DNA of 63,624 bases, the filler included, from Collodictyon triciliatum (taxonomy: Eukaryota), in assembly GCA_043381765.1 (NCBI GenBank). It is 4 parts of 4 records of this genome, joined end to end, with 100 filler letters (N's around TTAATTAATTAA, not from the genome) between each part and the next. Parts side by side here need not be neighbours in the genome. Positions count along the whole stretch, not along the records: positions 31,957 to 47,747 come from JBHJMP010001634.1; 3 more parts are not named here. The stretch is one strand, 5' to 3'. The translations under genes and the position numbers were made by a program. Shown one piece after another: positions 39,501 through 41,282 of the stretch; within the stretch, counting starts at the first letter, position 1, and each line of letters starts with the position of its first letter. Under the pieces are notes generated by a model. The model was not told the DNA's origin, ran no database searches, and was given only the letters and a program-made list of their open reading frames with translations.

Positions 39501-41282
39501 CGTTACCTGGATATATCCCGAAATAAGGTACTTTTTGAAACTTGAATTCAGTATTTCCTGACTTATGAATTCTTAAGATATATTTGATTTTCACGTCTAA
39601 CTGTCATACATCAGCTTTATAGCTTCCCTCTAGTATTCAAAAAACTCCCTGGCCTTGTACAGCTATACATCAATGAAAATCCGGTATATAAAATTGACTG
39701 ATTTTTAATTATTTTGAATCTATATATACCGCCTAGCTAACCATTTTTAATAGTTGTCAGAACTCCCTGTATGGATAACAACTCTCAGCAGACTCCAGTC
39801 ACTTCATGTAAGCTCTTTAGAAAACCCCTACCCATTAATACTCACAATGCACCGTATGAATCCTAATTGATGTGCTCTTTGGCTATTCAAATCGTATCCA
39901 CAGATCAACAGGAGGTATTCGGTGAGTGAATTATTTTGTGACATTGTTCATTCATCGGGACTTGCTGAAATCCATTAAAAAAAAAAAAAACCTTTCTAGA
40001 TCCGACATTATGTGTTTTACCCACTCATTGCATTTCTTTTTCTTTTTCTTTTTCTTTTTCTTTTTCTTTTTCTTTTTCTTTTTCTTTTTCTTTTTCTTTT
40101 TCTTTTTCTTCATCTTTATCTTTATCTTTTTCTGTTTATTACAGGCACCCTTCGGCACGATGACTAATGTACGCCACTGGCTTTAAAAATTGGCAAATAT
40201 ATCATTGAATATACATTTTTGAAATTACTTTCGTCGGAAAATATATAAATTTGAAAAATTAATAAGGATGTAAATCAATATATTGATATCATCCATTATA
40301 TCTTATGTGATTATTAATGTGTTTGCTATCCCCTTTTCTTTTTCTATTTTGAACAAAAAAAAAAATCTCGTTCATCCATCCCTTCATTTTCTAAAATAAT
40401 ATAATTTTAAGGTCGTAAGCAGCTATTCCATAATTAAATTTTGCATAAATCAACTGAAGCATTAAAAAAAAATAACACAAAAATCAGTTTGTAATGTTCA
40501 AATTTCTAGCACTGTTTAAAATTTATCATTTCCTATTATTATTTTTTACTCACATATTGGTTCTTTTGTTTATCCTATCTTTATTTGTGTTTAAAGCCAA
40601 TTTTATATTAATATTATTGTTTGTGGGCAATAGAATGTAAGTGTATGCTATGATAAATAAAAAATTTGGGAAAGAAAGGATACTAAAGACTCTCTCGCTT
40701 AGATGGTAACAGCGACAATATTTAGCGACCGAAAAGGTTTCTGTATCAACCCCTTAAAATCATCCTAATTTTTAGACCGTACTATTTTCATCTCATTTAC
40801 TTGCTTTTCAGTATTATTTTCACATTTATGTATAAGAGAGTATCCTTTCGACTCCTAGCACTACACAAACCCTCATATTGAAAAACTAGATTGTGAGTAG
40901 ATAAACATAAGATAACATAAGAAAAACCACGCATCTACTCACAGATTTTGGGTAATAATCAGAGTGTAAGACTACATCTATCCTGCCTCTCCCACACCTA
41001 CTGCACAATCTAATCCACCCTTAACACCGAATCATGATATTTTTATACTAACTATGCACTTCTTGAATGGATACTGGTTGCTCATAGTATGTAAGTGACC
41101 TATTCAACCATTCTACTCTCTTTTATCGGAAATCATAAAACGATGATTCATAGATTCAGTTTGTTCCGCGGGGCATCATCAGACTGCCTTGTTGGGATTA
41201 CTATAATCAGCATCTTGAAAAAATCAATATGATATCATACTATGATGATGACGATGACGACTCCGAAGAGAACAAACTTTAA
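36542..41282 (+). CDS. Leucine-rich-repeat protein with one-repeat-per-exon structure, a candidate single-codon micro-exon array, and an acidic C-terminal tail
   Basis: Eleven 69-nt phase-0 exons (37153, 37291, 37521, 37748, 37994, 38165, 38354, 38567, 38738, 39459, 39615), each xxxLPxxIxxLxxLxxLxLxxNx. Further exons 39071-39328, 39754-39807, 39904-39921, 40145-40168. Terminal exon 41154-41282 IQFVPRGIIRLPCW...DDDDDDSEENKL*. Confidence 0.88.
36812..36955 (+). repeat. Intronic polypyrimidine repeat (TTTTCTTCT)n then (TTCCTTCT/TTCT)n
   Basis: Direct inspection; lies within LRR intron 1. Confidence 0.9.
37884..37981 (+). repeat. (TTA)n intronic microsatellite
   Basis: Direct inspection; (AAT)n tracts also at 32006-32047 and 49563-49657. 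Confidence 0.95.
38833..38946 (+). repeat. (TCTTTAC)n heptamer intronic microsatellite
   Basis: Direct inspection. Confidence 0.95.
40267..41090 (+). other. Array of ten putative 3-nt (single-codon) micro-exons
   Basis: aag|GAT|gtaaat 40267; aag|GTC|gtaagc 40412; cag|TTT|gtaatg 40488; tag|AAT|gtaagt 40634; tag|ATG|gtaaca 40703; tag|ACC|gtacta 40776; aag|AGA|gtatcc 40837; tag|ATT|gtgagt 40890; cag|AGT|gtaaga 40963; tag|TAT|gtaagt 41088. Spacers of 50-143 nt resemble normal introns of this genome. Confidence 0.75.

Follow-up and report, generated by a model that had tools for sequence, protein, structure and literature searches.

Evidence for serial splicing of single-codon exons near the 3' end of a leucine-rich repeat gene of Collodictyon triciliatum

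The locus described here raises the question of whether a row of exons, each a single codon long, can be spliced at all, and if so whether its codons are chosen one at a time or are read together into the same messenger RNA (mRNA). It lies in a stretch of DNA of 63,624 nucleotides (nt), filler included, from Collodictyon triciliatum (GenBank assembly GCA_043381765.1). This whole stretch is called the window here, and the locus falls in the part of it taken from record JBHJMP010001634.1. Near the 3' end of a predicted leucine-rich repeat (LRR) gene, ten units of the form AG-NNN-GTR follow one another between the last small exon and the terminal exon. A previous interpretation made from the DNA alone (the sequence-only reading) had proposed that splicing selects one of the ten codons for a single LRR position, in the manner of Dscam. 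We find it probable that the interval is made of about ten short introns (63-143 nt) and single-codon exons, and that the codons are spliced serially into one mRNA and not chosen singly. Six single-codon exons stand in series in a transcript contig, and the full number is probably nine.

The array occupies positions 40169-41153 of the window (+ strand, 985 nt), between exon 16, which ends in ...ATGACTAAT, and the terminal exon, which starts with ATTCAGTTT.... It holds exactly ten AG-NNN-GTR units, each of 3 nt and none of them a stop codon: GAT (D, 40267-40269), GTC (V, 40412-40414), TTT (F, 40488-40490), AAT (N, 40634-40636), ATG (M, 40703-40705), ACC (T, 40776-40778), AGA (40837-40839), ATT (I, 40890-40892), AGT (S, 40963-40965) and TAT (Y, 41088-41090). 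All ten were re-found where the sequence-only reading had placed them and with the codons that it had given, as were the flanking exons (40145-40168, APFGTMTN followed by gtacgc, and the exon that opens after tag at 41154 with IQFVPRG...). Its estimate of one to two chance matches per kilobase (kb) also agrees with our counts, since the whole window has 99 AG-N3-GTR sites on its + strand and 91 on its - strand, or about 1.5 for each kb of either strand. The enrichment of three-base spacings that it had asked to see checked was found when the check was run: for AG-Nk-GTR in 40169-41153 there are 0, 4, 0, 10, 0, 0 and 1 matches at k of 0, 1, 2, 3, 4, 5 and 6, respectively, that is, ten at N3 against none at N2, N4 or N5.

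When the 985 nt were shuffled 5000 times with dinucleotides preserved, N3 units averaged 0.57 per shuffle with a maximum of 4, and ten were never reached. For an expectation of 1.56, the Poisson probability of at least ten AG-N3-GTR sites in 985 nt is 5.8e-6. When both strands of the window were scanned, no second 985-nt stretch with at least ten such sites was found; outside the array the maximum was 6, both in the richest 1-kb bin of the + strand and in the richest 985-nt stretch of the - strand. That + strand bin, 44001-45000, was considered as a second array and rejected, because its six sites have weak, G+C-rich contexts within long open frames. With the stricter pattern AG-N3-GTRAG, 5 of the 11 + strand sites in the window fall inside 40169-41153. 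The array pattern is real and far beyond chance, with about one chance match to be expected among its ten units.

Evidence for the use of these sites comes from X1, the sole public run that matched the locus, which was available as Logan contigs, matched at 0.09 of the sampled words and is of a kind given by guess as 'RNA?'. Three X1 contigs were aligned to 39050-41600, to which they are 95-99% alike. In contig 1, exon 11 is preceded by the end of exon 10, present as a loose end. Contig 2 (402 letters, depth 7.57) has the collinear pieces 39457-39525, 39613-39682, 39753-39807, 40144-40169 and 40890-40994, and runs from exon 12 through exon 16 and then through GAT, GTC, TTT, AAT, ATG, ACC and ATT as in the genome. 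At its joint from 40169 to 40890, 17 extra letters together with the G at 40169 spell the codons from GAT to ACC; these six fill the letter count exactly, and AGA is missing. Contig 3 (200 letters, depth 2.65) has 41037-41090 joined, GT..AG, to 41154-41295, and retains the intron before TAT. The junctions of exons 10 to 11, 11 to 12, 12 to 13, 13 to 14 and 14 to 15 to 16 are all confirmed in X1, the ordinary joints being GT..AG. Since the contigs are without ordinary introns 10 to 15, as judged by joints or letter counts, they are spliced copies, unlike genomic DNA. X1 has no cover at 39824-40081, at 40254-40855 and from 41372 onward, and is uninformative either way in these intervals.

Unit by unit, both splice sites are used in X1 for six of the ten (GAT to ACC, micro-exons 1 to 6), with the donor of ACC, GTACTA, joined to the acceptor before ATT. 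At ATT (micro-exon 8) only the acceptor is used, its donor GTGAGT being unused in that molecule, and at TAT (micro-exon 10; tag-TAT-gtaagt) only the donor is used, the acceptor being unused in that contig. AGT, the candidate micro-exon 9 (cag-AGT-gtaaga, with flanking introns of 70 and 122 nt), is read through unspliced, and AGA is skipped. Past ATT, contig 2 continues unspliced through AGT (40963) to 40994, and this retained stretch reads I V S R stop. After 40994 it ends in 18 letters that match nothing in 39050-41600 and that resemble what we take to be the reverse complement of a template-switch oligonucleotide used in complementary DNA (cDNA) synthesis. If the last bases of such an oligonucleotide annealed to CCCA at 40991-40994, priming took place within the intron, and contig 2 had to retain it.

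The skipped unit, AGA, is most likely the expected chance match and not an exon. If it were used, the introns on its two sides would be 58 and 50 nt long; the 25 other introns of the LRR gene all measure at least 63 nt. Its donor, GTATCC, matches GTAAGT at three of six positions and, together with GTACTA after ACC, is the weakest of the eleven array-side donors, whose matches are, in order, 4, 5, 5, 4, 6, 4, 3, 3, 5, 5 and 6. Without AGA the array introns measure 98, 142, 73, 143, 66, 70, 111, 70, 122 and 63 nt, sizes that are normal for this gene, and the donor is GTAAG or GTGAG in five of the nine used or likely units. Set against the usual description of a micro-exon (30 nt or less), all ten units have AG and GTR flanks, six of the ten are present in a spliced transcript, and the frame is kept with no stop.

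Serial use of the codons would give an in-frame insert, D-V-F-N-M-T-I and probably also S and Y, between APFGTMTN and IQFVPRG. With nine codons the product would read ...INRRYS APFGTMTN DVFNMTISY IQFVPRG..., and the frame is open from APFGTMTN to IQFVPRG. Retention of any array intron, on the other hand, leads to a stop or a frameshift. The full protein thus requires that all of them be removed. In a profile made from the 11 regular LRRs, exon 14 with the first five residues of exon 15 scores 9.7, as expected of an LRR. The last 23 residues before the terminal exon score -49.1 with no codon, -32.9 with one (-28.9 if that one is M), -40.0 with seven, -41.2 with eight, -35.5 with nine and -28.2 with ten, compared with a mean of -32.8 (standard deviation 8.9) for random sequences. 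Since the array peptide scores like random sequence, the codons would be placed in a non-repeat linker that follows the last good LRR. The sequence-only reading had argued that exactly one LRR residue is missing at this point; the argument does not discriminate, as the profile score is random-like whichever of these codon numbers is inserted.

What remains is to weigh other ways in which the units might be used. A mutually exclusive choice, one codon of ten at one LRR position, would make sense of ten different residues with no stop among them, and one extra residue would, by eye, restore N-x before IQFVP. It can nevertheless hardly be true, because GAT, GTC, TTT, AAT, ATG, ACC and ATT occur consecutively in a single contig. 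The score of the one-codon form is that of random sequence, the spacers are mutually unrelated, and RNAduplex runs of the first and the last intron against the nine others, with 100 shuffles each, gave mean z values of 0.10 and 0.06, a coarse comparison within a single species. The sequence-only reading was therefore right about the micro-exons themselves, whose splice sites are used and whose codons are in a transcript, but its preferred diversification by single choice is contradicted by seven codons found together. It had also described a constant insert as the outcome that would uphold the micro-exons and not the diversification, and what was seen comes close to this, except that AGA is left out. 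Its second option was that in-frame subsets form a variable loop. We regard as unlikely such a combinatorial cassette, in which nine or ten 3-nt exons are independently taken or skipped and the contig that we see is the commonest path. Any subset of units would stay in frame and no unit is a stop, the missing AGA could be an instance of skipping, and contigs cannot show that variants are absent. However, in the sole transcript evidence six units are used without a gap and a seventh is joined to them, AGA has a simpler explanation in its weak donor and in the 58- and 50-nt introns that its use would leave, the peptide falls outside LRR-like sequence, and no regulatory RNA pairing was detected by RNAduplex. 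If this combinatorial use were true, the gene would yield in-frame variants by the hundred, all of one short surface segment beside the LRR domain, and the absence of AGA would be the first sign of skipping.

A different possibility is that use of the array stops at ATT, where the transcript would normally continue into 40893 and beyond. The protein would then end in DVFNMT-IVSR-stop, AGT and TAT would not belong to the same mRNA, and the 41090 to 41154 junction would be that of a minor or unproductive form. The deepest contig (7.57) does keep 40893-40994, the contig with TAT is shallower (2.65) and keeps the intron upstream of it, and the retained reading stops after four codons. Against this, the depth of contigs cannot rank forms, and the foreign 18-letter end, if it is the cDNA oligonucleotide, means that the molecule was selected for holding the intron. 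The ATT donor GTGAGT, cag-AGT-gtaaga and tag-TAT-gtaagt rank with the array's best sites, and the terminal exon is coding-like and joined in frame to TAT. We consider such a truncated end quite improbable. It is highly improbable that the window organism has no micro-exon splicing here, the codons forming one ordinary exon in X1 and the genomic pattern being chance or an assembly oddity. This idea draws on the 95-99% likeness of X1, which is not the assembled individual and for which no DNA run was aligned. It does not account for the fact that the window repeats the codons of X1 in unchanged order, each of them between AG and GTR at intron-like spacing, a pattern reached in none of the 5000 shuffles. 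After ATT, moreover, the X1 contig enters the window's own intron sequence, so that the loci are collinear, and an unspliced window gene could not make the peptide of the relative.

Several points weigh against the serial splicing that we favour. The transcript evidence is a single run of assembled contigs of low depth (2.65-7.57) with a guessed 'RNA?' label, and its source is a close relative or another strain, not the assembled individual. None of the three contigs has the fully spliced form: contig 2 retains the intron after ATT and runs through AGT, and contig 3 retains the intron before TAT. On its shorter side the joint from 40169 to 40890 has 26 letters, under the caution line of 30, yet it stands within a five-piece collinear contig. 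Contigs drop rare variants, and they show presence but neither absence nor abundance. The use of the ATT donor, of both AGT sites and of the TAT acceptor is inferred only, as are the origin of the array and the sequence in which its introns leave. Among the proteins and contigs searched there was no orthologue or paralogue in which conservation could be followed.

How might such exons be spliced? Three bases are too few to hold the acceptor-side and donor-side complexes together, given the footprints of U1 and U2AF. We suggest that each short array intron would be recognised alone, by intron definition, and that adjoining introns would be removed in turn: once one is gone, its codon would have become part of an exon of normal size, and the next intron could then be removed. 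A strong intronic half of the donor would offset the arbitrary exonic half. The short, uniform sizes of the introns and the strong intronic donor halves fit intron definition. The logic would be that of recursive splicing, with a three-base footprint left behind at each step. In one of the two partly spliced contigs the upstream introns are gone and intron 8 is kept, and in the other the last intron is gone and intron 9 is kept. These contigs fit stepwise removal, although they themselves give neither order nor kinetics, and with intron 9 still present after loss of the last one, removal would not proceed strictly from 5' to 3'.

As to how the array arose, we tentatively suggest that a long intron at the end of the gene acquired AG-NNN-GTRAG sites one after another, each tolerated because it lengthened a linker by a single residue in frame. 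Three features support this: the array introns are unrelated, the encoded peptide is arbitrary and not LRR-like, and nine or ten separate intron insertions at consecutive codon boundaries without proto-splice sequences are very unlikely. Over the 45 pairs of array introns, similarity averaged z 0.006 and peaked at 2.4. No tandem repeat or shared repeat family was found in the array, and an origin from a repeat, an introner or a duplication was rejected in view of the dissimilar introns and the lack of a shared repeat. An old exon fragmented by introns could also have left such an array. In searches with exon 11 there was no relative among longer proteins, and none of 306 pattern matches in metagenome contigs or of 181 in prokaryote genome contigs was confirmed. 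For the terminal exon, a 25-base exact stretch had no match in metagenome contigs, the longer proteins held no relative, and a search of 1.84 billion representatives returned two matches, both unrelated repeat proteins.

The gene that carries the array (gene body 36542-40168, + strand, ATG at 36542), translated from its exon and intron coordinates, is predicted to encode an LRR protein whose repeats are 23 residues long and have an exon each. Exon 1 (36542-36721, 180 nt) gives an N-terminus, MGLQISRLQLLDPQFF..., that by eye is not hydrophobic. Thirteen exons contain at least one LRR. Eleven of these are exactly 69 nt long (23 residues, phase 0) and hold one LRR each, of the form x-x-x-L/I-P ... 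L-x-L-x-x-N-x, and such exons make up nearly all of 36542-39683. The repeats fit L-x-x-L-P...L-x-L-x-x-N-x at a period of 23 residues. In leave-one-out profile scoring these 11 repeats gave 13.4, 19.1, 16.6, 5.9, 20.3, 12.0, 18.6, 5.2, 8.2, 27.7 and -10.3, compared with the random mean of -32.8. Pfam, which was searched with single exons only, gave no match for exon 1 or exon 11. The 69-nt series is broken by a long exon at 39071-39328 (258 nt, 86 residues), which contains a non-LRR insertion of 40 residues, …HLTAQRFPIGLTRLSIWGTRHYRPPPTMYNHAPYYNNHGLTSTDE…, that matched nothing in Pfam and had no relative in the searches made.

Exon sizes shrink toward the 3' end of the gene to 54, 18 and 24 nt, followed by the array and the terminal exon, all on the + strand. 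Exon 14 (39754-39807, 54 nt, donor GTAAGC) encodes LSELPVWITTLSRLQSLH and corresponds to the contig 2 piece 39753-39807. Exon 15 (39904-39921, 18 nt, donor GTGAGT) encodes INRRYS and is represented in contig 2 by 17 unaligned letters (167-183) and one at 40144. Exon 16 (40145-40168, 24 nt, donor GTACGC) encodes APFGTMTN and corresponds to the piece 40144-40169. The terminal coding exon (41154-41282) reads IQFVPRG...SEENKL and stop, with transcript cover to at least 41295. The 15 regular introns are 69-431 nt long. Many of their donors are unusually weak, 4 of the 15 being GTT; the matches of these donors to GTAAGT are 5, 2, 5, 4, 3, 2, 5, 3, 4, 4, 4, 4, 4, 5 and 5. Donors of the array and those adjoining the small exons, the latter near-consensus, come closer to GTAAGT than the other donors of the gene. 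The introns of this gene are also rich in long microsatellites, such as (CTTTTT)n, (CTTTC)n-like, (ATT)n and (CTTTA)n. Such stretches, at 36400-36520, 36800-36960, 37880-37985, 38830-38950 and 40020-40137, make up most of the length of the longer introns. A search of 36400-41700 against Rfam for intron-borne RNAs such as small nucleolar RNAs gave no match at E<=1.

Elsewhere in the window, an intronless open frame of 825 residues at 2-2476 (- strand) runs off the window end and contains at least seven WD40 repeats (Pfam), in addition to Sel1-like repeats and a pentapeptide-repeat-like stretch recognised by eye. A TRIM-like gene at 16833-19346 (- strand) has a RING finger and NHL repeats (Pfam) and, by eye, a B-box-like cysteine/histidine stretch that has no Pfam match; the Atlas clusters nearest to its NHL frame are metazoan TRIM-NHL proteins, with scores of 0.87-0.94. 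At 35209-35970 (+ strand) there is a PHO80-type cyclin domain (Pfam PF08613, PF00134), whose nearest clusters are plant and amoebozoan. Three pairs of 44-N runs, 12 bases apart within each pair, at 15951-16050, 31857-31956 and 47748-47847, are surrounded by microsatellites and resemble marks of masking or scaffolding, not biological features, and a gap of 861 N is present at 24201-25061.

Single 3-nt exons are known rarities and are hard for aligners, gene finders and the spliceosome alike. With a chain of six to nine of them in a single transcript, exon fragmentation here would go further than in any case that we could trace in the literature searched, and such a structure strains present views of minimal exon size and of how splice sites are recognised. 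It would offer a natural substrate for questions of minimal exon length, of the need for ordered intron removal and of donor strength beside an arbitrary exonic half. An annotation that joined 40168 to 41154, or that stopped at 40186, would be wrong. The array also suggests that intron-internal AG-NNN-GT sites, each adding a single residue, are a simple evolutionary route; if that route is general, annotations of eukaryotes with short introns would miss a class of coding sequence. Another bold proposal, unlikely but compatible with combinatorial use, is that the spliceosome of this organism routinely splits long introns at AG-NNN-GT 'stepping stones'. In that case insertions of one residue could come from single-codon exons throughout the genome, none of them annotated so far.

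No comparable row of single-codon exons was found in the full-text literature searched, which largely excludes subscription journals. The array resembles the Dscam clusters in that units which look alternative are lined up between two constant exons. Those clusters consist of homologous, duplicated exons of normal size, of which one is used per mRNA through docking and selector pairing, and in the array neither duplication, nor one-per-transcript use, nor such pairing was found.

Schistosome micro-exon genes (MEGs) have symmetric exons of 3-81 base pairs (bp) and introns of up to 5 kb (10.1101/2023.06.21.545858). The likeness lies in tandem rows of symmetric, frame-preserving micro-exons. In MEGs, however, micro-exons of mixed size make up most of the coding sequence, the introns are long and the products are secreted, whereas here all units are 3 nt and the introns 63-143 nt. 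MEG products vary through exon skipping. Membership of this class was ruled out by the 13 exons of at least 69 nt (eleven of 69, one of 180 and one of 258 nt) and one of 54 nt that precede the array; here micro-exons are confined to the 3' end of an LRR gene that is regular elsewhere. In plants, micro-exons of 1-15 nt are constitutive and coding, reach down to 1 nt, and include adjacent ones of 5 and 12 nt validated by reverse transcription-polymerase chain reaction (PMC8831610). The 1-nt exons of plants have conserved strong GTRAGT donors, which parallel the strong donors of the array (PMC8831610). In what is described there, at most two adjoin, they are ancient and conserved in protein domains, and no equal run of single codons appears (PMC8831610).

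In animals, isolated 3-nt exons are described in cytohesin-1 and in Drosophila homothorax, and RPS24 has three consecutive micro-exons of 3, 18 and 22 bp (PMC12207440, PMC7392893, PMC6314551). These are like the units of the array in being one-codon exons with canonical sites that are included in mRNA. They differ in being single and usually alternative and regulated, whereas here at least six, and probably nine, adjoin one another and are used together. Recursive splicing in flies and vertebrates, at ratchet points and RS-exons, clears introns of tens of kb; a ratchet point is AG directly followed by GT, of which nothing is kept in the mRNA. The array cannot be assigned to that class, as 40169-41153 contains no AGGTR site and the codons are kept in the contig. 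What the two would share is a long interval cleared in ordered steps at internal sites where a donor comes immediately after an acceptor, with steric exclusion forcing the sequence of events; the array differs in that three bases are kept at each step and the whole interval is shorter than 1 kb.

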